Shown: piece after piece, positions 7,635 to 21,651 of the stretch
Position numbering within the stretch: the stretch's first letter is position 1
Layout of the letters: each line of letters starts with the position of its first letter
NCBI GenBank assembly: GCA_005239745.1
Contig: SBBL01000018.1
Coordinates: 1 to 33,603, forward strand
Direction of reading: 5' to 3'
Origin: Candidatus Troglogloeales bacterium
GTDB lineage: Bacteria; Nitrospirota; Nitrospiria; SBBL01
Length of the DNA: 33,603 nt
Translations under genes and position numbers: made by a program
The notes under the pieces: model-generated
What the model was told of the DNA's origin: nothing
Databases searched by the model: none
What the model saw: the letters and a program-made list of their open reading frames with translations, nothing else

Positions 7635-8393
7635 ATGGTGATGATGAATAGAGGTGCTGTGTACGAGGTTTTGCCGGGGCCGGAGGGGATTCTTCCACCG
7701 GCTGCGACGGTGATGGGCGTTTGTTTACCGGAGGAAGGTGAAGGACTGTTGCATGGCAGGATCGTCTCAGAAGAAGAGGCGATGCGATCTGCGGCAATTG
7801 CCATGCTCACGCGCCGGAATCCAACACTCTTTCCAGGCCCTTTAATGCTTTGGGGGTGGACGGAACATACACGGGATAAGTCTGCCCCGTTCTTTGAAGT
7901 TGCCCGAGAGATACCGGGGGTGCGCATTATTCCCATGCCGGACTATCGTCCCATTTACCCAAAGATTGACCCGGAAGCGGTGATTAATCCGTGTCATCCC
8001 AACCTGACGATCTGGCACAATAAAATTGAAGCCTGCGTTCTCATCGGAGTGCATTGTCATTTTGCGAATGTTACCCTTAAAATTATTCGTGGGGGGACGA
8101 ATTGTTTTACGATTGCCCTATGTGCCGAAGCAGGCCACGAAGACGCCATGAGTTCGGTCCCGAATGTGGGGGCGGAAAAAATTGCTCGTTTTGCGGAAAT
8201 TTTGAGATTGGTTAAAAAAGAAGGCGTTAAGCCGCTTTATGCCGGGCAAGGAATTATCCCCTCCGGGTGGGCCCAAGTGGCAAGCTTGGGTGGATCTGCA
8301 GGAGGGCAAAACGGTGCTTTTGTGGACAATGGGCTCTCTCACCATGGGCTTTCCCATGATTTGGAACATGGTCTAGACGAGAACGAAGAGTAG
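7635..8393 (+). CDS. putative fifth (epsilon-like) subunit of a five-subunit 2-oxoacid:ferredoxin oxidoreductase; otherwise hypothetical
   Basis: 252-aa ORF directly upstream of, and co-oriented with, the alpha/beta/gamma/delta genes. The size (~27 kDa) matches the extra subunit of Hydrogenobacter-type For/Por enzymes. No recognisable motif; assigned by position only. Confidence 0.45.
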   Translation: MVMMNRGAVYEVLPGPEGILPPAATVMGVCLPEEGEGLLHGRIVSEEEAMRSAAIAMLTRRNPTLFPGPLMLWGWTEHTRDKSAPFFEVAREIPGVRIIPMPDYRPIYPKIDPEAVINPCHPNLTIWHNKIEACVLIGVHCHFANVTLKIIRGGTNCFTIALCAEAGHEDAMSSVPNVGAEKIARFAEILRLVKKEGVKPLYAGQGIIPSGWAQVASLGGSAGGQNGAFVDNGLSHHGLSHDLEHGLDENEE

Positions 8394-8438
8394 TGTGGGG
8401 GGGGAAAGGTCTAGGTAATTAAGAATAGTGAGGACACG

Positions 8439-9674
8439 ATGAGCGAGAGTGCGGTTATTGAGGAGGTAAAGACAAACCCACAGGGCGATGTCATCACGTC
8501 CGCTCCTCCTCCAAAGGCGGATGCTAAGAAGGGTGCCGCAAGTCAGCGTGTTGTTAGCCCGGATTATCTAATGTTGCAGGCCCCGCGTGAGGCTGTTTTT
8601 ATGACGGGGAGTGAGGCGGCCAAGGAAGCGATTCGTCGCGCCAATGTGGATATCGCCATTTCGTATCCGATTACCCCGCAGAGTGAGACGATGCAGCAGG
8701 TGGGGTACCTCTATGCGGAAGGGTATTTGAAGGACTATTACCGCGGGGAAGAAGAATATGGCGTGATGTCGGCGATTGCCGGGGCGTCTCGTGCGGGAGT
8801 ACGTTGTCTGACGGCGACGGCCGGCCCTGGGCTAATCCGCGGTATGGAAGTGATCGCGTCTTGGCCGGGGGGCAGGCTCCCGTCCATGCTGCTCATTATG
8901 TGCCGTGTGATCAACGCGCCTCTTGCCATTCAACCCGATAATGTTGAGCTTTCGTACATGCTCAATACGGGTGGCATCCTATTTCACGCAGAAAATCAGC
9001 AGGATTTCTACGATTATATATTGGCCGGTTTCATGATTGGTGAGAAGCCGGAGGTGACCTTGCCGGTGGCCGTGGCAGTAGACGGGTTCTTCGTCACGCA
9101 TGCGCGCGGATGGGTTTCGCTACCGTCGGCTGATATCAAGCTGCCACCCAGAGACTGTTACCATGAGGCGGTTCCCATGATGGATAATGAAAATCCGCCC
9201 ATTCGTATCTCCCGTGATGCGCCCATCCAGAAGTCCAATTTCATTTCCTATCACATGCACGCCTCGTGGCAACAGGAAGTTTGGGCTGCACAGGCCCGTG
9301 CGAACAAATGGGTTAAGCGCTGGATGGGCAGCCCAATCGAGGTGGTCAACCCAACGGCAAAGACAATAATTGTTGCATCTGGTGCGATGGTATCTCAGTC
9401 TCGAGAAGCGGTCAGGCAGGCAAGTGAGCAGGGGATAGAGGTCGGCCTGGTCAAAATTAAGTCTCTACGCCCATTTCCATCGCAGGAGCTTGTTGAAGCG
9501 GTTGATGGTGCCGATCGGATCATCGTTCCGGAGTTTAATTATGTCGGGTGGCTTGCTAAAGAGGTAAGGTCCGCCATTCCGCGTACGGAGCGGGTAATCT
9601 CTGGGCCTCGGGTTTTTGGCGGCATGACGATGCCGACGGAGCTGATTATGAGCTACGTCAAGGGCCGGCGGTAG
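8439..9674 (+). CDS. 2-oxoacid:ferredoxin oxidoreductase alpha subunit (pyruvate/2-oxoglutarate family)
   Basis: 411 aa. POR/KOR alpha domain pattern (AISYPITPQSE..., GASRAGVRCLTATAGPGL). GAGGA RBS 8 nt upstream. Confidence 0.85.
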   Translation: MSESAVIEEVKTNPQGDVITSAPPPKADAKKGAASQRVVSPDYLMLQAPREAVFMTGSEAAKEAIRRANVDIAISYPITPQSETMQQVGYLYAEGYLKDYYRGEEEYGVMSAIAGASRAGVRCLTATAGPGLIRGMEVIASWPGGRLPSMLLIMCRVINAPLAIQPDNVELSYMLNTGGILFHAENQQDFYDYILAGFMIGEKPEVTLPVAVAVDGFFVTHARGWVSLPSADIKLPPRDCYHEAVPMMDNENPPIRISRDAPIQKSNFISYHMHASWQQEVWAAQARANKWVKRWMGSPIEVVNPTAKTIIVASGAMVSQSREAVRQASEQGIEVGLVKIKSLRPFPSQELVEAVDGADRIIVPEFNYVGWLAKEVRSAIPRTERVISGPRVFGGMTMPTELIMSYVKGRR

Positions 9675-9721
9675 GTCGGCGCTTAAGTTTTTGAATCTGT
9701 TCCTCACAAGGAGGGGATGCA

Positions 9722-10609
9722 ATGTCACTAGAAACAATTCGTGTAGCTCCGGGGTTTAAAGAGTATTTGCCTCGAGAATATCAGGATTTAGTAGACGATG
9801 GTCCGTTTGGCAGAGAACGAAAGGTCTCTGAGGTTGGGTCATTTAAGGAGGCCGTAGAAGAACATCCCATGTGTGCCGGGTGTGCCATGACCCTCTTTAT
9901 TCGTACCGCCATCGTGGCGCTTCCGAGCTTAGAAAACACGGTGATCATCGGCACGGCAGGGTGTGGGCGATTGGTACTGTCTCAAACGGCCGTTCCGTTT
10001 ATCTACGGCAACTACGGGGATACCAATGCCGTTGCAAGCGGTCTGAAGCGGGGCCTAGCGATCCGCTTTAAGGACAAACCCAAAGATGTCGTTGTTATGG
10101 CAGGCGATGGGGGGCTTGCTGATATCGGTTTTTCGGCGGTCATGCACTCCTGGTTTAGGAAGGAAAGATTTACCACGGTCATGCTCGACAATGAAGTTTA
10201 TGGAAACACCGGTGGGCAAGAAAGTGGCATGACGCAGAGGGGGGCTATCTTAAAGATGGCACCGCTCGGTAAGAAGTTTGAAAAGATGGATATGATGGGG
10301 CTTGCCAAAACGGCAGGGGTCGCCTACATTGCCCGCGTAGTGCCGACAAACGCCACCCGTGTGGCAAACACCATACGGAAGGCCGTCCTGATCGCGAGAG
10401 AGGTGGGCCCCACGTATGTTCAGGCCTATACGTCTTGTAATATTGAATATGCGATTCCAACCCCTAAGGTGATGGATGATGCGCGTATGATTGAGCAGCA
10501 GAGGTATGGGTTTTCAGAATACTTTACCGATGAGGCCAAGTCCTATTGGGAGCACTACGAAAGAGAGCGTCGTCAAGTTAAGGGCCCAGACGGCGAATCA
10601 GAAGATTAG
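9722..10609 (+). CDS. 2-oxoacid:ferredoxin oxidoreductase beta subunit (thiamine-diphosphate binding)
   Basis: 295 aa. TPP-binding GDG motif (VVMAGDGGLADIGF), Cys-rich N-terminal region CAGCAM...GCG. Strong AGGAGGGG RBS. Confidence 0.9.
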   Translation: MSLETIRVAPGFKEYLPREYQDLVDDGPFGRERKVSEVGSFKEAVEEHPMCAGCAMTLFIRTAIVALPSLENTVIIGTAGCGRLVLSQTAVPFIYGNYGDTNAVASGLKRGLAIRFKDKPKDVVVMAGDGGLADIGFSAVMHSWFRKERFTTVMLDNEVYGNTGGQESGMTQRGAILKMAPLGKKFEKMDMMGLAKTAGVAYIARVVPTNATRVANTIRKAVLIAREVGPTYVQAYTSCNIEYAIPTPKVMDDARMIEQQRYGFSEYFTDEAKSYWEHYERERRQVKGPDGESED

Positions 10610-10752
10610 GGGCACCTCTAAAAACCGTCACGAGCGGCCAAAATGCAAGGCGCACGGAGCAGAGGAACCGGAATATATCTTTGAATATATGAGGATTCCG
10701 AGCACCGCGCAACGTAGCAGTTTGGACGCACAGTAGGTTTTTAGAGGTGCCC
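10610..10752. repeat. MITE/REP-like palindromic element, copy 1 (143 bp)
   Basis: Perfect 17-bp terminal inverted repeats GGGCACCTCTAAAAACC ... GGTTTTTAGAGGTGCCC. The internal core is shared with copy 2. Flanked by the direct 4-mer TTAG on both sides; the left TTAG contains the beta-subunit stop codon. Confidence 0.85.
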
Positions 10753-10889
10753 TTAGGCGTATCAAGCGTCTCATTGTTGACGAAGCACCGCGGGATCATT
10801 CGGGCAACCTTTAAGCTGGAATCCGGTAGCTTTTAAGTGTTTTTGTCGTGGGCGCGGCTGTGGCTGCGCTCTAGCAATAGGAGGGTAAA

Positions 10890-11609
10890 GTGGCTGGAAT
10901 AGTGTCGAGATACAATGTTCGGATGGCGGGAATCGGTGGGCAGGGCGTTGTGACCGCGTCGCACGTTCTGAGCAATGGCGTTATCATTGGAAAAGGACAA
11001 AGCACGCTGGTGCCGTTTTTCGGCTCTGAAAAGCGGATGGCGCCCGTGGAAAGTTATGTGCGTGTGGCAAACGTTCAGATCTATGAAATTGGCGAGATCA
11101 TCTACCCGAATGTCATTATGATCTTCCATCCGCAGGTGATTACGCACGGTAAGTCGTATACGATGCCGTTTTATTCGGGATTAAAAGAGGCTGGTGTCGT
11201 TCTCATCAATAGTGAGGAACCCGTGGCAATGGGTGAAGACCAAGAGCGAGAGCTGAGGTTAATGAAAGCGAAGGTTTGCTACCTTCCAGCCACTAAAATT
11301 GCGAACGAGGTCGGTGGGACGGACCTTGCGACCAATATGGCGATGGTCGGAGGGATAGCGGGGATTATTGGCATGCCGTCGCTTCCAGCCTTGAAGCAGT
11401 CGGTTCACGAGCGCTTTTTAGGGAAGGGGTTCGTTGTCTCCGGTGGAACGGCCTCTCTAGATAATGTCATTGAGAGAAAATTCGCTAAAAAAGCGGAGCT
11501 GGTAGAGAAAAACTTTGCCGTTGTGAAGGCGGCTTACGAGTATGTCATTGAACGGGGATGGGCTATTTCTGGAAAAGAGGCGGAAGTGCGTGAAGCGGTT
11601 GCTGCTTAG
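10890..11609 (+). CDS. 2-oxoacid:ferredoxin oxidoreductase gamma subunit
   Basis: 239 aa. POR-gamma signature YNVRMAGIGGQGVVTA near the N-terminus (cf. IRFxGRGGQG). GTG start with a GGAGGG RBS. Confidence 0.85.
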   Translation: MAGIVSRYNVRMAGIGGQGVVTASHVLSNGVIIGKGQSTLVPFFGSEKRMAPVESYVRVANVQIYEIGEIIYPNVIMIFHPQVITHGKSYTMPFYSGLKEAGVVLINSEEPVAMGEDQERELRLMKAKVCYLPATKIANEVGGTDLATNMAMVGGIAGIIGMPSLPALKQSVHERFLGKGFVVSGGTASLDNVIERKFAKKAELVEKNFAVVKAAYEYVIERGWAISGKEAEVREAVAA

Positions 11610-11632
11610 AATCTAAAAATTCGTGAGGGTCT

Positions 11633-11911
11633 ATGTACGCTGTTGCCGATATTGACGTTGATGTGTGCGGTTCCACAAAGTGTAGGCTCTGTACGCAGTT
11701 TTGCCCGGAGTCCAATACCATTCAGTTCGATAACGCACGGAACTCGGCCTACGTATCGGTGGACCGGTGCAAGGGATGCGAGATTTGCGTTGGAGTTTGC
11801 GACGATCTTGCCAAGCACCACGCGATTAAGATGGTTCCGATTAACGAAGTCCAAAGCGGCTTTGAGCTTCGGCTTGTCGGTTTCAAACAGTCTATTGCCG
11901 GTCTCCATTAA
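11633..11911 (+). CDS. 2-oxoacid:ferredoxin oxidoreductase delta subunit (ferredoxin-like, two Cys clusters)
   Basis: 92 aa with two 4Fe-4S-type cysteine motifs (CGSTKCRLCTQFCP and CKGCEICVGVC). Located directly after the gamma gene. Confidence 0.8.
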   Translation: MYAVADIDVDVCGSTKCRLCTQFCPESNTIQFDNARNSAYVSVDRCKGCEICVGVCDDLAKHHAIKMVPINEVQSGFELRLVGFKQSIAGLH

Positions 11912-11916
11912 CGATA

Positions 11917-12102
11917 GTGAAGTGTCCTGCCTGTGGGCACGAAAATGACCCCTTCCTCCCTTGGTGTGTTAAGTGCCTGAGGGAGTTCCCCTCGTCCCTT
12001 CCTCGTGTCCGTGTCTGCCCGGAGTGTCACGCCCAGAATGATGCGGATGCCTATCACTGCGAGGTCTGCCATGAGCCGCTTCGCCCGGGCCAGTCGGAGT
12101 GA
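11917..12102 (+). CDS. small double zinc-ribbon protein (hypothetical)
   Basis: 61 aa with four Cys pairs (CPACGH, CVKC, CPEC, CEVC). Starts 5 nt after the delta-subunit stop. Confidence 0.45.
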   Translation: MKCPACGHENDPFLPWCVKCLREFPSSLPRVRVCPECHAQNDADAYHCEVCHEPLRPGQSE

Positions 12103-12170
12103 CGGGGGGAATTGTCATTACGTACTGCACAACATCCACGTACCAACTTGTGGGGAATGGTAAGGGGTTA

Positions 12171-12192
12171 GAAGGGTTCCCCCTTTGTTTTA
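12171..12192 (+). terminator. weak intrinsic-terminator-like hairpin after the OFOR cluster/zinc-ribbon ORF
   Basis: GAAGGG-TTCC-CCCTTt stem-loop followed by TGTTTTA. Short stem, so low confidence. Confidence 0.25.
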
Positions 12193-13524
12193 CCCGCGAA
12201 TAGGGGAAGGCGTGGTCCCCGCGAAATAGGCCTTCGCCTCTCCAATGGTATATAACGATCCCGTAATAGTCAGCGTATCGTTAGGTTGCATGTTGTGCAC
12301 CGCGTAGGCAATAGCCTCAGGGACGGTTTTGTGGGGCGTCTGGCGCACCGGTGTGCCCACCCTGGATGCAGTCACAGATTTAAGAGATGCCAGTATGTCA
12401 GCAGGAGAGGCAGCGCGTGGGATGTTTGGAGCAGTCACAATGATCTCATGCGCCCATGTCAGTAGGTAAGACAACATATCGGCGATCCGCTTATCCTTCA
12501 TTATGCCGACAATCGCCAAGCGTTTGTGGCGAGGGTCAGGCGTTATCTGATGTAGGGCGTTGACCAGTGCCTGCACGCCTGCAGGGTTGTGTGCACCATC
12601 CAGAATAATCCGCGGCCTCTCGTGCACCGTTTCAAAGCGTCCGGCGCACGTTGCACCCGCAATCCCTTTAAGAATGACTTCGTGAGAAAGTTTCACCCCC
12701 AACTGCTGTAGACACTCGATGATACCCAGGGCAACGCCGGCGTTTTGCACCTGGTGCGGACCCGCCAGTGAGCAGTGAATGGCGTGCACGTTCCCCTGCA
12801 GACCGATATAAACAAAGTGCTCCGGGTTGTCTCCCATGACACGGATCTCATGCCCCAGGCGGATTAAGGGCGCACCTTTTTCGTGCGCGATCCCTTCAAA
12901 GATTGCCAAGACTTCCTCCTGTCCCACTGCCGTGACAACGGGGACCCCTTTTTTAATGATCCCTGCCTTTTCTTTAGCGATCGCCTCAATCGTCTCTCCA
13001 AGATACTGCTCGTGATCAAGGGCGATTGTAGTAATGGCTGCCACTAAAGGAAGAACCAGATTCGTGGCATCGAACCGTCCCCCCATTCCTACTTCCAAGA
13101 CGGCATAATCTAAACGCTGTTCGGAAAAGTAGAGAAAGGCAAGGGCGGTTGTAAATTCAAAAAATGTAATGGGTGGAGTAAACGGGAGCGCCTTGACGCA
13201 ATCACGTATGATAGAGGTCAATCGGATCATTTCAGGCGCCGGGATTGGCGTCCCGTTGATACGTATGCGTTCCGAGAAATCAATCAGGTGGGGTGATGTG
13301 TAAAGGCCGGTCCGGTACCCACCCCGTGTCAGAACGGATGCCACCATGGCAGCAGTTGAGCCTTTCCCATTGGTACCTGCGATATGGATGGAGGGGAACG
13401 TCCGCTCGGGATGGCAAAGCCTGTCCATAAGTGCCTCCATCCGAGCCAGGGTAGGCACAATCCCATGCCCCTGCAAACGGAACAGGTAATCCAGTGCCTC
13501 CGTTACCTGCGGCGTAGTTCCCAA
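12190..13524 (-). CDS. folC: bifunctional folylpolyglutamate synthase / dihydrofolate synthase
   Basis: 444 aa Mur-ligase family protein. P-loop AGTNGKGST and FolC-like central and C-terminal domains. Confidence 0.85.
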   Translation of the reverse strand: MGTTPQVTEALDYLFRLQGHGIVPTLARMEALMDRLCHPERTFPSIHIAGTNGKGSTAAMVASVLTRGGYRTGLYTSPHLIDFSERIRINGTPIPAPEMIRLTSIIRDCVKALPFTPPITFFEFTTALAFLYFSEQRLDYAVLEVGMGGRFDATNLVLPLVAAITTIALDHEQYLGETIEAIAKEKAGIIKKGVPVVTAVGQEEVLAIFEGIAHEKGAPLIRLGHEIRVMGDNPEHFVYIGLQGNVHAIHCSLAGPHQVQNAGVALGIIECLQQLGVKLSHEVILKGIAGATCAGRFETVHERPRIILDGAHNPAGVQALVNALHQITPDPRHKRLAIVGIMKDKRIADMLSYLLTWAHEIIVTAPNIPRAASPADILASLKSVTASRVGTPVRQTPHKTVPEAIAYAVHNMQPNDTLTITGSLYTIGEAKAYFAGTTPSPIRG

Positions 13525-13677
13525 TCTTGTCCTTTAACAAATGTGTCCACTGATGGCAGCGTATCATAACAAGGGCGGCAAGCAAGAGGGTAGTGGATTT
13601 ACCAGTTGTCTTCCGATACCGTATTATGCAAAAATGCGCGGCTTAGAGAAGGTCTCACTCAAGTTTTGAGAAGGCAG

Positions 13678-15243
13678 ATGGCACAGACCGTGCTGGGGTT
13701 AGATATCGGTCAGGACACCGTTCGTGGCGTGCGTATCGGGCAGGGCCTGCGGGGTCTGCGCGTGCTGGATATATTCGAGCAGGAGGTGCCCAAGGAAGAG
13801 GTTGCCTCCGGTCTGCTCTGCCATGGGCAGATGGAGGCACTTAAACAATTAATTTCAGACGGAAAAATTAGGCCAAATGAGCGGATTACCGTTGCCCTAC
13901 CCGGTCAGTTTGTCTCTTTCCGGACATTGGTACTTCCCTTTACGGACACCCGGAAGATCGAACAGGTTGTGCCATCGGAGCTGGAAGCGCATCTACCGTT
14001 TGATTTGGAAGAAGTGATTGTTGACTCTTTTCTCACGCAATCGAATAAAGACGTGCAAACGTCTCACGTCTTAGCCGTTGCCGTCCAGAAAACCGTTCTA
14101 AAGCAATATTTAGACGCCCTACAAGAACTTGGGCTCAACCCTTCCGTGGTTGGGTTAGATACCCTTGCGCTTTATTTGGCCTATACGTCCGGCCATGCCG
14201 AGCAACACATCGCGCACGGCGCCGCTCTTCTAATTGATATAGGGGCGTCTAAAACGGTTCTAGCCGTTATCGCCCAGGGTCACCTACGATCCGTTCGAAC
14301 CCTCTTGATGGGTGGTGATGACATAACCGCCACCCTCCAGCATGTCCGCCGGTTGTCGTGGGAAGAGGCAGAAATAGTAAAGATGCGAAGCACGCTTGAT
14401 CCTATGGAGGCAGATGACGATGGCGTGGAGGTTGCCACGTGCATAAAAGAGGCACTCACCCCGTGGCTACGTGAGATAGAAAAAAGCTGTATGGATGTTT
14501 CTGCCTTCTACCTGTGCGGGGGGGGAAGCCTCTTAAAAGGATTGAGTGATTATATTGCACAGGCACTGCAACTGTCTCCTATATCCTGGCAGTCCGAGAT
14601 TCAGGGCATCAACCGACAGGCCGTACCCACTTACATGCAGGGGCTTGGGCTTGCCCTATCTGTCACACAACCGGAGAGGGAGTTAAACTTACGACAAGGC
14701 ACCTTTCTTCTTCATCAGTCCTCTAGTCAGAAGCAGAGACAGCTCCTCGCAATGGGATTTGGCGTTTTGGTGGTTGTGAGCCTGTTGGTGGCCGGGGTTT
14801 ATCTTCGTCATCAACAGGTGCAGCAACGTTATAAATCATTGAAAGAGACGCTTCATGCAGGCTTTGTCCGTCTGTTACCGAATGCACCCCGGGCGTCTAC
14901 GTCAGAGATTGAACAAGTGGAAGCGATCATTCGGACCACGGAACAAACTCATGAATGGCTGGAGATTAACCGGGAGAGTCCGCTGGCTACGCTCCGCGCA
15001 TTGACGATGGCCATACCGCCCGAAGTTCCCATTGATGTTCACGAATTTTCTGTAGATGGGAACAAGGTGCGTGTTGCGGCTACAACCCGTTCCTATGACA
15101 TGGTAGACCAAATACGCGGCGGTCTGTTGGGGGTTCCTCACTTCCAGGATGTGAATGTTAGTGGCGCAAAGACCTCTCCCGGTTCCTCAAGTGTGGAATT
15201 TGATATTCAGTTTTCGGTTGGGCCGTTACAGGATTTACGGTAA
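13678..15243 (+). CDS. type II secretion/pseudopilus assembly protein, GspL-like (PilM-like actin-fold cytoplasmic domain + TM + PilN-like periplasmic domain)
   Basis: N-terminus MAQTVLGLDIGQDTVRGV (actin-like ATPase fold start), a single TM segment (LLAMGFGVLVVVSLLVAGVYL) about 370 aa in, and a periplasmic C-terminal domain. Start placed at the internal Met; the ORF track starts 72 nt earlier. Confidence 0.65.
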   Translation: MAQTVLGLDIGQDTVRGVRIGQGLRGLRVLDIFEQEVPKEEVASGLLCHGQMEALKQLISDGKIRPNERITVALPGQFVSFRTLVLPFTDTRKIEQVVPSELEAHLPFDLEEVIVDSFLTQSNKDVQTSHVLAVAVQKTVLKQYLDALQELGLNPSVVGLDTLALYLAYTSGHAEQHIAHGAALLIDIGASKTVLAVIAQGHLRSVRTLLMGGDDITATLQHVRRLSWEEAEIVKMRSTLDPMEADDDGVEVATCIKEALTPWLREIEKSCMDVSAFYLCGGGSLLKGLSDYIAQALQLSPISWQSEIQGINRQAVPTYMQGLGLALSVTQPERELNLRQGTFLLHQSSSQKQRQLLAMGFGVLVVVSLLVAGVYLRHQQVQQRYKSLKETLHAGFVRLLPNAPRASTSEIEQVEAIIRTTEQTHEWLEINRESPLATLRALTMAIPPEVPIDVHEFSVDGNKVRVAATTRSYDMVDQIRGGLLGVPHFQDVNVSGAKTSPGSSSVEFDIQFSVGPLQDLR

Positions 15244-15386
15244 GGGCACCTCTAAAAACCGTCGCGAGTGGCCCAAATGCAAGGGCTACTGCGCACAGGA
15301 ACCGGAGTATATCTTTGAATATATGAGGATTCCGAGCACAGCAGCTCGCAGCAGTCGGGTCACGCAGCAGGTTTTTAGAGGTGCCC
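15244..15386. repeat. MITE/REP-like palindromic element, copy 2 (143 bp)
   Basis: Same 17-bp TIRs and shared core (…CCGGAGTATATCTTTGAATATATGAGGATTCCGAGCAC…) as copy 1. Flanked by the direct 4-mer GTAA on both sides; the left GTAA contains the stop codon of the GspL-like gene. Confidence 0.85.
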
Positions 15387-15404
15387 GTAACTAGGTTTAA
15401 CGCA

Positions 15405-15947
15405 ATGAGTGGAATTAACCGTATGGCTTTTCTTTCTTCCCGTGAGAGAGGAGTTCTGGCTGCGGGAGTCTTGTTACTTTTTGTGATTGTTGGCTATGTC
15501 TTTTGGCTTGGCCCCATACGTGAAGATACCACGCGACTGACGCGCCTAATCCCCAAGAAGGAGAAAGATATCCGGGCCTTTGCTGTGTTGCGGGACCGCT
15601 ATCTGGTGTTGCGGGGTGATGTGGATGCGGTAGAGCGGCAATTCCCGCCCAAGGAGTTCTCTTTGCTGTCGTTCCTAGAAGAAAATGCTAATAGGAACAA
15701 CATAGGAGGGAATGTGACTTACATCCGTCCACTGACCCCCGAGACGCATGAGCCGTACCGCAACAACAAAGTTGAGGTGAAGATAGCCAATGTCCATCTG
15801 GTGGATATGGTCTCCTTTCTCGGCACCATTGAACGCATGCCTTATTCGCTGCGGATTGGGAGCCTTTCAATCAGGACGCATCGCTCCGATCCATCTCTGA
15901 TGGATGCCACCTTCGTTATATCATCGTACCAAAGAGATCTCTTCTGA
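15405..15947 (+). CDS. type II secretion system protein M-like (GspM/PilO-like)
   Basis: About 180 aa with one N-terminal TM helix (VLAAGVLLLFVIVGYVFWLG), positioned between the GspL-like and GspK genes. The ORF-track GTG start at 15381 lies inside the repeat element, so the first ATG after the element is used. Confidence 0.55.
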   Translation: MSGINRMAFLSSRERGVLAAGVLLLFVIVGYVFWLGPIREDTTRLTRLIPKKEKDIRAFAVLRDRYLVLRGDVDAVERQFPPKEFSLLSFLEENANRNNIGGNVTYIRPLTPETHEPYRNNKVEVKIANVHLVDMVSFLGTIERMPYSLRIGSLSIRTHRSDPSLMDATFVISSYQRDLF

Positions 15948-16859
15948 GTGTTTCTGCCCCGTGTCAGCCGCCATGGATTTGCCCTCCTTCTTAGTTTAGC
16001 CGTTACGGCCTTGCTCACCGTTGTCCTGTTAGAGGCCGACTTTCAGGCGCGCACGCACTTGCGCGCTGCCGGGAATTTCCGGGATGACACAAAGGCGTTT
16101 TACTTGGCGCAATCCGCTATCTTGAAAGGTCAAGCGCAATTAACGGATGATAAAAAAGAGGACGGTAAAAAGCCATCCGACGCTTACGATGGCCTGGATG
16201 AGCCGTGGGCGCAAACAACAACAAACACCCTGGGCGGTGGGACGTTTGAGGTCGAAATTACGGACGAAGCGGGAAAATTTAATCTAAATGCCTTGACGCA
16301 ACCCGGGTACGTCCTTCAGTTAAAACGACTTTTTAAGCAGTTGGGTATTGAGGAATCTCTCGTTGATGATGTTGCGGACTGGATTGATCCCAACGATACC
16401 CGTGGCGCGTTTGGGTCTGAAGCCGGTTACTACCAACAATTAGACCTTTCCTATGTGCCGTCCAATCAGCCTTTTCAAACCATGAAAGAGCTACGGTTGG
16501 TTGCCGGCATTACCCCGGAGATTTACCGGAAATTATTACTCCATGTTACCGTTTATCGTACACAACCAAACGATGGAAAGATAAACATTAATACGGCATC
16601 TCGGGCTGTCATTCAAAGTTTTGGCGCTTACGTGGATGACCAGTTGCTCAATCAACTGATTGCCGGGCGCCCGTACAAAAACCTAGGCTCCGCCGGGGCC
16701 GCCCTACAGAATACGATAGCCAACCTTGGGGTGATTGCAACGGTGAGGAGTGATATCTTTTCACTTGTCGGACGGGCAGAATTAAACAAGGTACAAAAGA
16801 CCATTCGGGCGGTCTACGATCGCAGTGGGAAAAAGACGCTTTATCTAAGTGTGGAGTAA
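15948..16859 (+). CDS. gspK: type II secretion system minor pseudopilin GspK
   Basis: Hydrophobic N-terminal segment GFALLLSLAVTALLTVVLL and GspK-characteristic blocks (LDEPWAQ, GKFNLNAL, KININTAS). Confidence 0.8.
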   Translation: MFLPRVSRHGFALLLSLAVTALLTVVLLEADFQARTHLRAAGNFRDDTKAFYLAQSAILKGQAQLTDDKKEDGKKPSDAYDGLDEPWAQTTTNTLGGGTFEVEITDEAGKFNLNALTQPGYVLQLKRLFKQLGIEESLVDDVADWIDPNDTRGAFGSEAGYYQQLDLSYVPSNQPFQTMKELRLVAGITPEIYRKLLLHVTVYRTQPNDGKININTASRAVIQSFGAYVDDQLLNQLIAGRPYKNLGSAGAALQNTIANLGVIATVRSDIFSLVGRAELNKVQKTIRAVYDRSGKKTLYLSVE

Positions 16860-16873
16860 GGCGTCTTCGTTTA

Positions 16874-17059
16874 GGGCACCTCTAAAAACCTACTGCGCAG
16901 CCCAATTGCTGCCCACCCCAAAACATTCAAACATTGTTTGGGGGGGGGGCGGTGCGTTGCGTGGTGCTTAAGAATCCGCATGTATACTGCATACATTGCG
17001 GTTCCTGCGCGCAGTAGCCCTTGCACTTGGGCCGCTCGCTACGGTTTTTAGAGGCGCCC
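16874..17059. repeat. MITE/REP-like palindromic element, copy 3 (186 bp, inverted orientation, expanded core)
   Basis: Terminal repeats GGGCACCTCTAAAAACC ... GGTTTTTAGAGGCGCCC (one mismatch). The reverse complement aligns with copy 2 through ...GGGCTACTGCGCxCAGGAACCG.... The core is replaced by a different palindrome (CGCATGTATACTGCATACATTGCG) and contains a G10 homopolymer at 16940-16949. Confidence 0.8.
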
Positions 17060-17269
17060 TTGACATAGATTGCCTCCGTCTCTGTCTTAAGAAAACTACC
17101 GTCGGTGTACACAGCAGGCCAGGGCCTTTGCCTTCCCGCAAGCGGGTATGCTACGCTACCCCGCTTCTAAGGTTGTCATTCCGGCATGCTTTTTGCCGAT
17201 ATGGCGCCTGTGTGGTGGGCGTCAATACTGAATCGTACGTATTAACCTATCTTAGAAGAAGGAGATGTT

Positions 17270-17500
17270 ATGTCGGAGCACCTTGATACCTTAGAGATGC
17301 GTGTGCAGGCGATGATTAGCCTTGTTGGGCGCCTGAGGCAGGAGAAGGCCGAGCTTTTTGAAATTGTTCGTCGGATGGAGGTGGAGTTGCTTCAGTATCA
17401 AAAGGAGCGTGATGCGATCCGGACGCGCCTCGGGAAAATTGTTGACACGCTTGAGACAATAGGTGACTGCACCGAACAGGAGCCGATACTTGCAAAGTAG
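17270..17500 (+). CDS. ZapB-like coiled-coil cell-division protein (hypothetical)
   Basis: 76 aa, predicted all coiled-coil (LDTLEMRVQAMISLVGRLRQEKAELFEIVRRMEVELLQYQKERDAIRTRL). GGAGA RBS. Sits immediately upstream of zapA. Confidence 0.5.
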   Translation: MSEHLDTLEMRVQAMISLVGRLRQEKAELFEIVRRMEVELLQYQKERDAIRTRLGKIVDTLETIGDCTEQEPILAK

Positions 17501-17807
17501 CCACCGAGTTGAAATCTGCGGGCAGCAATATACCCTGCGTGGAGAGGCCGACTCTGCCTATATACAGGGACTTGCGGCCTTCGTTGAACAGAAGGTCAAG
17601 GAGGTCTCTTCTCTTCCCGGTGAACATTCATTCAAAACTGCTATCCTGGCCGCGATCAATATTACAGACGAGCTCTTCCAGTTGAGACGGCAGCAGAAGC
17701 AATCGAAAGATAGTATTGATCGCCGTACCCGGGATATCATCGAGCAAATTGAAGAGCAGTTTGAGACGGAGGCGGGAATGAGTTTGGGCGGCGTAGCTCA
17801 GGGGTAG
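17490..17807 (+). CDS. zapA: cell division protein ZapA
   Basis: ZapA-like N-terminus (VEICGQQYTLRGEADSAYIQGLAAFVEQKVKEV) and a coiled-coil C-terminus. Start chosen at TTG 17490 with an AGGAG RBS 7 nt upstream; the ORF track uses GTG 17463. The frame has no stop until 17805-17807, which lies inside the tRNA. Confidence 0.6.
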   Translation: MQSSHRVEICGQQYTLRGEADSAYIQGLAAFVEQKVKEVSSLPGEHSFKTAILAAINITDELFQLRRQQKQSKDSIDRRTRDIIEQIEEQFETEAGMSLGGVAQG

Positions 17808-21312: not shown

Positions 21313-21651
21313 TCACATAACAATGGTTGCGTCAGCCGTGGCGAGAAGCGTGGCTATCTCGTGTGTCAAAAGGGGGCTGATGGGATACCGGCTTTCCTTG
21401 CAGTGGGTCAGGGCAGTGGACTCCAGATAAAAACAGGGAACGAAGGCCGTGAGCCCGTCTAAAAACCCCGTCGCCATTTCTCCATCCATGCAGGCTTCGG
21501 CGTCAGACGTTAAAAGCCTGGCAGATGACCCTACGAAAAGGAGAGAGACTTGTTGTTCGCAAGCGGCAATGCCGAGCGCAATCCGAACGGCTTCGCAGGC
21601 ACGTGCAGATATTCTCGGATCGCTGCGAATAATAACAACCGTGTGTTTCAT
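21313..21651 (-). CDS. DsrE/DsrF (TusD/TusC)-like family protein
   Basis: 112 aa. N-terminal MKHTVVIIRSDP...ALRIALGIAA pattern typical of the DsrE/DsrF fold. Separated from the DsrH-like gene by 6 nt. Confidence 0.5.
   Translation of the reverse strand: MKHTVVIIRSDPRISARACEAVRIALGIAACEQQVSLLFVGSSARLLTSDAEACMDGEMATGFLDGLTAFVPCFYLESTALTHCKESRYPISPLLTHEIATLLATADATIVM

Follow-up and report, generated by a model that had tools for sequence, protein, structure and literature searches.

Probable IS5-type miniature inverted-repeat elements at operon stop codons in a Nitrospirota contig, and a covarying hairpin core found between several other kinds of ends

The stretch of DNA analysed here, hereafter the window, comprises 33,603 nucleotides (nt) of contig SBBL01000018.1 (assembly GCA_005239745.1, positions 1-33,603, forward strand) from a Candidatus Troglogloeales bacterium of the phylum Nitrospirota, and our subject is a family of palindromic repeats represented in it by three copies, at 10610-10752, 15244-15386 and 16874-17059. 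The first copy lies in a five-gene 2-oxoacid:ferredoxin oxidoreductase cluster (7635-11911), which Pfam matches resolve into a CO_dh-like (epsilon) gene, a POR_N (alpha) gene, a TPP_enzyme_C gene for the thiamine pyrophosphate-binding (beta) subunit at 9722-10609, the copy itself, a POR gamma gene and a 4Fe-4S ferredoxin (delta) gene, an arrangement that we take to be that of Nitrospirota using the reductive tricarboxylic acid cycle. The other two copies adjoin genes of type II secretion (T2SS), namely a PilM/T2SS-L-like gene (13606-15243), a T2SS-M gene (15381-15947) and a T2SS-K gene (15948-16859). These matches make reasonable the gene names given in an earlier reading of the DNA made without database searches (hereafter, the sequence-only reading), which had called the flanking genes porB-like, gspL-like and gspK. 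The 545-amino-acid (aa) product of 13606-15243 has PilM_2 (actin-like ATPase fold) as its best Pfam match, with weaker matches to T2SSL and PilN, and from its sequence looks like a PilM/GspL/PilN-type fusion. The 103-aa open reading frame (ORF) at 17316-17627 has no Pfam match.

Copy 1 (+ strand, 143 bp) scores 142.5 bits with our covariance model R1 and separates the beta gene from the gamma gene (10890-11609). Its left 17-bp terminal inverted repeat (TIR), GGGCACCTCTAAAAACC, occupies 10610-10626 on the + strand and is a putative transposase binding site; the right TIR occupies 10736-10752 on the - strand. Directly outside these termini the tetranucleotide TTAG can be read at both 10606-10609 and 10753-10756 as a target-site duplication, the left copy of which contains the porB stop codon (TAG, 10607-10609). 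The interior includes a conserved hairpin apex at 10666-10697 (+ strand; AACC-GGA-ATATAT-CTTTGA-ATATAT-GA-GG-A-TT) and, on the 5' side of an internal loop, the conserved block GCAAGG (10645-10650, + strand), whose partner block CAACG lies at 10710-10714. Copy 2 (+ strand, 143 bp, 135 bits with R1) is similarly placed between the T2SS-L-like gene and the T2SS-M gene (probable ATG near 15407), and its duplication GTAA (15240-15243 and 15387-15390) again holds a stop codon (TAA, 15241-15243). Aligned together with 3-nt flanks as a 149-nt repeat, copies 1 and 2 are 84% identical.

Copy 3 (186 bp, 77 bits with R1) is inverted with respect to copies 1 and 2, with the model matching the - strand, and begins 14 nt past the T2SS-K stop codon with flanks TTTA/TTGA. 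Its additional length appears as an alignment gap against the other two copies and corresponds to a 43-bp side hairpin (16913-16955, - strand), consisting of C and G runs around AAACAATGTTTGAATGTTT, that marks a 186-bp subfamily; a homologue of this side hairpin occurs at approximately 2626-2668 of L129, a contig from another metagenome. In the window copy the stem of the side hairpin is a C10/G10 homopolymer pair, a slippage-prone arrangement that is a likely cause of assembly trouble. Just to the right of copy 3, a terminator-like hairpin followed by a T-run is seen at 17096-17117 (- strand), and copy 3 may thus sit between convergent transcription units.

The six termini form three inward-facing pairs (10610/10752, 15244/15386 and 16874/17059), with GGGCACCTCTAAAAACC starting on the + strand at 10610, 15244 and 16874 and occupying 10736-10752, 15370-15386 and 17043-17059 on the - strand. 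All six are where the sequence-only reading had placed them, and its accounts of copies 1 and 2 beginning directly after a stop codon and of the flanking tetranucleotides of all three copies agree with the sequence. Its claim of perfect 17-bp termini holds for copies 1 and 2; the right terminus of copy 3 (17043-17059, GGGCGCC...) has one mismatch. That reading also recognized the termini as shared while missing both the inversion of copy 3 and its side hairpin, which is an addition and not a different core. Allowing up to three mismatches, the window contains seven matches to GGGCACCTCTAAAAACC where 0.13 are expected, and none of 100 shuffles reached seven. The seventh match (GAGCCCGTCTAAAAACC, 21451-21467) has three mismatches and no partner; it is also present in Logan contigs L117 and L118 and is probably a chance match.

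With respect to structure, each window element is predicted to fold end to end into a single hairpin of -65 to -76 kcal/mol on either strand (z = -8.5 to -10; for copy 1, -65.2 kcal/mol and z = -8.5). In an alignment of 11 Nitrospirota copies (A2), 96.2% of the cells at predicted pairs are paired and 15 of the 45 pairs show change on both sides, values that none of 500 shuffles reached; controls in which the pairing was slid gave 34-47% paired. The block GCAAGG is invariant in A2, and in alignment A4 no variation is seen in the AGG of this block or in the C and G of its partner, and the remaining positions are nearly constant.

To place the termini, the 17-mer was scanned against one genome per species in a collection of 185,579 species, which returned at least 115 loci against about 70 chance matches expected for a 17-mer in a collection of that size. 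Nearly all of the loci listed are preceded by a TA-rich tetranucleotide, many lie at contig ends, and about 50 are paired with an inverted terminus at a distance of 50-440 bp, so that most of them are real despite the chance expectation. Also among the loci listed are seven longer elements with GGGCACCTCTAAAAACC ends (L014, L016, L051, L077, L082, L083 and L093; 1.19-1.33 kb), each with one ORF of 335-358 aa; the inverted partner is 1.2-1.3 kb away in L014, L016, L051, L077 and L082, the L093 element is cut short by the end of its contig, and L083 lacks a partner. Two of these ORFs, those of L014 and L082, were tested; they reach 259 and 275 bits against NCBIfam NF033581 (cut-off, 140 bits), the model for 'IS5 family transposase', and also match Pfam DUF772 and DDE_Tnp_1. 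The L082 element is from a Nitrospira metagenome-assembled genome (MAG), and hence from the phylum of the source organism, and is the nearest full-length copy among the loci listed.

Among the matches listed there are 58 short elements with these ends, mostly from other genomes, and a perfect 4-bp duplication flanks 32 of them, with a further 10 agreeing at three of four positions; an offset control gave none in 58. The position-wise consensus of the duplications is T-T-A-A, the commonest being TTAA and TTAT. Insertion sequences of the IS5 group generate a 4-bp duplication at YTAR/TTAA-like targets.

Several loci with the 17-bp ends depart from this simple organization. In a Spirochaeta MAG (L058, 1925-3271) two inverted termini 1331 bp apart surround a non-transposase ORF of 347 aa, which may be a passenger-carrying or composite arrangement. 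At L056 (3483-3693) copies are nested or in tandem, with same-strand termini 60 bp apart, one of them within the other element. Six Campylobacterota loci (L009, L011, L034, L050, L085 and L113) hold MITEs, or miniature inverted-repeat transposable elements, of 265-290 bp that have the same ends and a double-hairpin interior. A metagenome scan with the family-specific end returned three loci only, and copy 1 as a query against plasmids yielded no useful match.

In terms of distribution, further copies of the family exist in relatives, as the sequence-only reading had anticipated. A Troglogloeales MAG contains one complete copy (L010) and two truncated copies (L022 and L066), the study that yielded the source also produced a Nitrospirota bin with another copy (L038), and copies of the same subfamily are found on metagenome contigs L119, L120 and L121. 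The copy on L129 (Joint Genome Institute sample 3300045502) is flanked by GAAA/GAAA and shares copy 3's side hairpin. The 51-aa 'protein' P0122, from a different NCBI contig, is the translation of another near-identical copy. A short-read (Logan) contig of the source population ends 28 nt into copy 1, a break that is as expected of a multi-copy repeat. Conversely, the porB-porG spacer is 25-68 nt long and free of the element in four relatives (L123-L126) whose PorB proteins are 83-84% identical to that of the window.

Taken together, these observations assign the window elements, on the evidence of their sequences, to MITEs with IS5-group ends and a 4-bp TA-centred target. The assignment as MITEs draws on terminal inverted repeats, target duplications, a length of 143-186 bp without a transposase gene in the window, and dispersed copies that differ in presence and absence; the IS5 connection follows since the same ends bound elements encoding DDE_Tnp_1/DUF772 transposases and the 4-bp duplications are TTAA-like. 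We therefore consider it highly probable that the window elements are non-coding IS5-type MITEs mobilized in trans by an IS5-family transposase at TA-centred 4-bp targets, and the proposal in the sequence-only reading of a non-autonomous MITE with 4-bp target duplication is upheld by the IS5-type ends found elsewhere and by the 32 perfect duplications. Under this model an IS5-family DDE transposase, whose gene would lie elsewhere in the genome or have been there formerly, would bind and cut at the 17-bp ends; during integration a TTAA-like tetranucleotide (NTAN) would be cut with a 4-bp stagger, leaving the 4-bp direct repeat.

The same model offers an account of why copies 1 and 2 abut stop codons. 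Stop codons are natural targets because the target holds TA followed by A or G, and in a compact genome of about 50% G+C a stop codon is among the few permissible sites between cistrons. Selection would remove insertions within genes, and the surviving copies would often lie exactly at stop codons; for copies 1 and 2 the duplication keeps the stop codon intact. In other genomes the end of a long ORF falls within 4 nt of the element in roughly 7 of 25 oriented copies. Since copies 1 and 2 lie within operons and in sense orientation with the genes, co-transcription is the default expectation, and they would be present as hairpins of ~140 nt in polycistronic mRNA, where the hairpin would most likely act as a determinant of processing or stability or as a partial terminator. 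Mobilization in trans, co-transcription and an effect on the mRNA are thus what we infer for these copies. Directly observed are their anatomy, the 4-bp duplication, the IS5 type of the partner, the lack of the insert in relatives, and a core that is conserved and covaries.

Several observations weigh against this interpretation. The window has no autonomous IS5 copy (tblastn with IS5 transposases, best E-value 1.8), as the sequence-only reading had also concluded with respect to transposases, and the partner is inferred from other genomes. The flanking tetranucleotides of copy 3 agree at only three of four positions and so form an imperfect duplication. The 'empty sites' that the sequence-only reading had called for are element-free porB-porG spacers of relatives too divergent for base-exact comparison. 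A simple terminator scan does not flag the elements, and we have set aside an intrinsic terminator as their function. Finally, orientation relative to neighbouring genes in other genomes is 10:6 and 12:8, neither significant, and this lack of bias across genomes speaks against a strong orientation-dependent host role.

Two other explanations for the repeats were weighed. Being intergenic, palindromic, clustered and at gene ends, they invite comparison with repetitive extragenic palindromic (REP) sequences and bacterial interspersed mosaic elements (BIMEs), the label that the sequence-only reading had kept as an alternative, which would have been spread by a RAYT (Y1 HUH) transposase and not by a DDE enzyme. 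The 17-bp inverted repeats and 4-bp duplications speak against that label, as does the association of these ends with IS5-family DDE elements; to our knowledge REP elements have neither long terminal inverted repeats nor target duplications, and they measure 20-40 nt as opposed to 143-186 bp. We regard such an origin as very improbable. Equally hard to credit is that the repeats are three local duplications or a small protein-coding gene family, notwithstanding that all three lie within 6.5 kb and that ORFs of 81, 79 and 61 aa, the look-alikes pointed out in the sequence-only reading, run through them. Each copy has its own flanking duplication, and copies are present on unrelated contigs and in other genomes. 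As to coding capacity, the ORFs begin in the flanking DNA, which differs from copy to copy, and run across the element on both strands, the internal ATG frame of the Nitrospirales subfamily stops after three codons, and none of the three exact ORFs is found in a collection of 15 billion proteins. The accompanying warning of mis-annotation was borne out marginally, by two look-alikes in a non-redundant set of 5.8 billion sequences.

The probable identification of the elements as IS5-type MITEs leaves their interior to be explained. This interior is a hairpin of ~105 nt with the blocks CAAGG, CGGAG-stem-TGAG and AACGC, and model R1 also recovers elements with the same interior and different termini (alignment A3). 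Specifically, a Nitrospirales chromosome (OY820905.2; L057, 2314-2452) carries the core with GTAACTACTCAGGT as its end and ATGGGTGG as a direct repeat of 8 bp, and these different ends and the 8-bp repeat imply a partner transposase of a different family. Other ends around the core are GGGGCTGTGTCAGGAC in L112, GAATCCTTTGCAAAAC in L031 and GGGGTGCTGAAGTG in L119 (10170-10304), and the IMG/VR contigs L130, L131 and L132 contribute one further end type each. All told, no fewer than five other types of end enclose the core, across Nitrospirota, Bacteroidota, Spirochaetota, Desantisbacteria and Pseudomonadota. A sequence profile built solely from the TIR-stripped interiors of eight Nitrospirota copies, when searched against 0.94 Mb, matched L057 (2336-2422) at E = 3e-11, L131 at 2e-6, L112 at 5e-4, a Desantisbacteria copy at 1e-6 and L133 at 8e-5.

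Comparison of 15 diverse cores revealed compensatory change in 23 of 31 predicted pairs, several of which show three to six pair types, with the blocks CAAGG, AAAA(G/C)CG(G/C)AG, TGAG(G/C)ATTT and AACG near-constant. The build of the apex is fixed: it has two C-G pairs (one covarying between CG and GC), a G bulge, tandem G.A/A.G and a 6-bp stem with a G.U pair at its base, and an A is bulged on the 3' side. Of the 15 cores, 13 retain the G.U pair. A core-only covariance model (R2) scored 38-76 bits on full-core copies outside its training set (L133, L134, L078, L130, L023 and L135, the last a Pseudomonas cerasi plasmid). Generic hairpin MITEs with the same ends and other interiors scored at most 13.4 bits, except L085 at 22.1 bits, and 10 of these 12 control loci were at or below 13.4 bits or had no match at the MITE. 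L085 itself lacks the apex but has two core blocks, A and C, in the form of CAAGGCG and CAACGCCG. The interior is a covarying hairpin whose unpaired blocks are conserved and which MITEs with several different ends have in common; it is not junk.

By BLAST, the proteobacterial form of the core is located on Pseudomonas and Halomonas plasmids and has no match in 5,426 E. coli genomes. The core is absent from full-length IS5 elements and from MITEPsy1, a Pseudomonas MITE considered below; it has no Rfam family, and literature searches for the end and core sequences yielded nothing relevant. Several specific roles were considered for it and rejected. The idea that the apex is a remnant of a transposase ribosome-binding site and start codon does not agree with the absence of the motif from full-length IS5 copies, and a conserved micro-ORF (MRI.../MSI...) is interrupted in the Nitrospirales subfamily, where the frame stops after three codons. 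A by-eye check for a central integration host factor site found no convincing WATCAANNNNTTR. Selection on the RNA of one particular strand was likewise set aside. Folding energy favours the strand with GGA..GAG in 22 of 25 elements (alignment fold, -24.8 versus -14.5 kcal/mol), a bias that comes mainly from purine-rich loops and from the orientation chosen for the elements and is not decisive; arm mismatches of the G.T and A.C types are balanced, and on the antisense strand, too, there is a conserved candidate wobble.

The behaviour of the core raises a further possibility, that the functional unit is the core itself, as a structured RNA or as folded DNA under selection, and that the IS5-type ends are only its current vehicle. 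The recovery of cores between other ends by a profile without TIRs, the compensatory change around near-constant CAAGG, CG(G/C)AG...TGAG and AACG blocks, the separation by R2 of untrained full-core copies from generic hairpin MITEs, the absence of the core from full-length IS5 elements and MITEPsy1, and the retained G.U pair are all consistent with such a unit. Set against these are the lack of an Rfam family, the unbiased orientation relative to genes, and the mismatch balance and antisense wobble candidate, by which no RNA strand is singled out. Moreover, long DNA palindromes can gain compensatory change through template-switch repair without selection, and conservation of the core could reflect selection for transposition at the level of the element and not a cellular function. 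On balance we hold this explanation to be tentative and less than even in probability. In the same guarded spirit, the core could be an ancient selected module, with a covarying stem, conserved CAAGG/AACGC and CGGAG/UGAG internal loops and a conserved G.U pair, that has persisted in at least five phyla through exchanges of ends, transposase partners and duplication length (4 bp, versus 8 bp in L057). It would then be a functional device, of RNA or of folded DNA, to which its MITEs owe unusual success or tolerance, with the ERIC elements discussed below perhaps a distant member; we think this conceivable but rather doubtful. Such a device might be an mRNA processing or stability element, or an architectural aid that pairs the ends of a transposon shorter than the persistence length.

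As IS5-type MITEs, which remains our preferred interpretation, the window elements have their nearest characterized relative in MITEPsy1 of Pseudomonas syringae pv. phaseolicola 1448A, whose presumed partner is ISPsy2 of the IS5 family (PMC3189936). MITEPsy1 is non-coding, is flanked by a 4-nt target duplication at CTAG or YTAA targets, and has been trapped transposing in vivo (PMC3189936), whereas the window elements are presumed mobile from their sequence. The ends, of 17-18 nt, are related (CCTCTGAAAAAGCC in MITEPsy1 versus CCTCTAAAAACC here), and we recovered a MITEPsy1 copy with the duplication CTAG on plasmid NC_007274 (L136, 11482-11581). It differs from the window elements in length (100 nt versus 143-186), in belonging to another phylum, and in having no match to the core model.

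A second comparison is with ERIC, the enterobacterial repetitive intergenic consensus, or intergenic repeat unit (IRU), of Enterobacteriaceae and Vibrionaceae. Like the window elements, ERIC is an imperfect palindrome (~127 bp) that is intergenic and often within operons. Its centre, GGAG-CTTAC-ATAA-GTAAG-TGA, has the build of the core apex and is flanked by a stem, GGAAGGCG lying upstream and TGAGCGAACGCAG downstream. It loosely shares the three core blocks, and R2 gives an alignment over the full length of the E. coli ERIC (19.6 bits; E about 0.002 when 91 kb are searched), as against at most 13.4 bits for all but one of the hairpin controls. The ends of ERIC are different (TATACTC...GAGTATA), and a sequence-only profile (hidden Markov model, HMM) has no match to it. 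We know of no transposase partner for ERIC, and none surfaced in this search. A kinship between ERIC and the core is suggestive only, and the resemblance may be convergent. Within transcripts, ERIC alters mRNA decay in Yersinia (review PMC10969869).

The only Rfam match is to sX9 (RF02228), a 75-nt Xanthomonas small RNA (sRNA) confirmed by Northern blot (PMC3300014). It falls on the antisense half of copy 1 (10611-10690), with which sX9 shares ACTCCGGTTCC and GCTCG(C/T)(T/G)ACG, at 20.4 bits and E = 0.099 against a gathering score of 44, so that copy 1 is not a member by the Rfam criterion. At the gathering threshold there was no Rfam match in the window or in 18 related loci, and neither the core HMM nor the core covariance model matched sX9 loci on Xanthomonas plasmids. 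Given one weak Rfam match and only 1 of 10 pairwise comparisons better than shuffles, homology to sX9 was rejected. sX9 is itself among the most prevalent Rfam sRNA matches in bacteria (PMC9029176), a prevalence that fits a repeat element.

There is also precedent for MITEs inside operons and transcripts, as proposed here for copies 1 and 2. The Chunjie MITE reportedly leaves operon structure undisturbed, to judge from the title of the paper that described it. Chunjie is located in a Geobacter uraniireducens operon for phosphate uptake, and RNase III cuts the Correia hairpins of Neisseria when they are present in mRNA (review PMC10969869). By their descriptions, both are set apart from the window elements by unrelated sequences, ends and target duplications.

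For practical purposes, the coordinates of the three copies are to be annotated as mobile-element repeats and not as genes or sRNAs, and the element accounts for breaks in contigs assembled from this Manganitrophaceae-like lineage. Copies 1 and 2 lie in operons central to the lifestyle of the organism, those for pyruvate/2-oxoacid:ferredoxin oxidoreductase and type II secretion, and may uncouple the expression of downstream subunits. An IS5-type MITE is a known and ordinary kind of element; a core that extends across end types and phyla is without a described counterpart in Rfam or in the literature searched, and this conserved, covarying core is the part that deserves specialist attention. 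If its conservation reflects function, the core provides a handle on the persistence of palindromic MITEs, ERIC included, and on the origin of ERIC-like elements.

Some additional observations concern the PorB protein and other loci. The PorB of the window was matched only on its source NCBI contig and on Logan assemblies of SRR6261451 and SRR6943129, and its nearest named relatives are from Candidatus Manganitrophaceae (Nitrospirota). One PorB homologue (P0001; ENA, 442 aa) scores 725 bits against a query self-score of 666 despite 76% identity over 76% coverage, and may be a duplicated or fused protein. In a Stenotrophomonas locus (L076, 1-404), a match to RNase P RNA contains an unaligned insert of about 190 nt near its 5' part.

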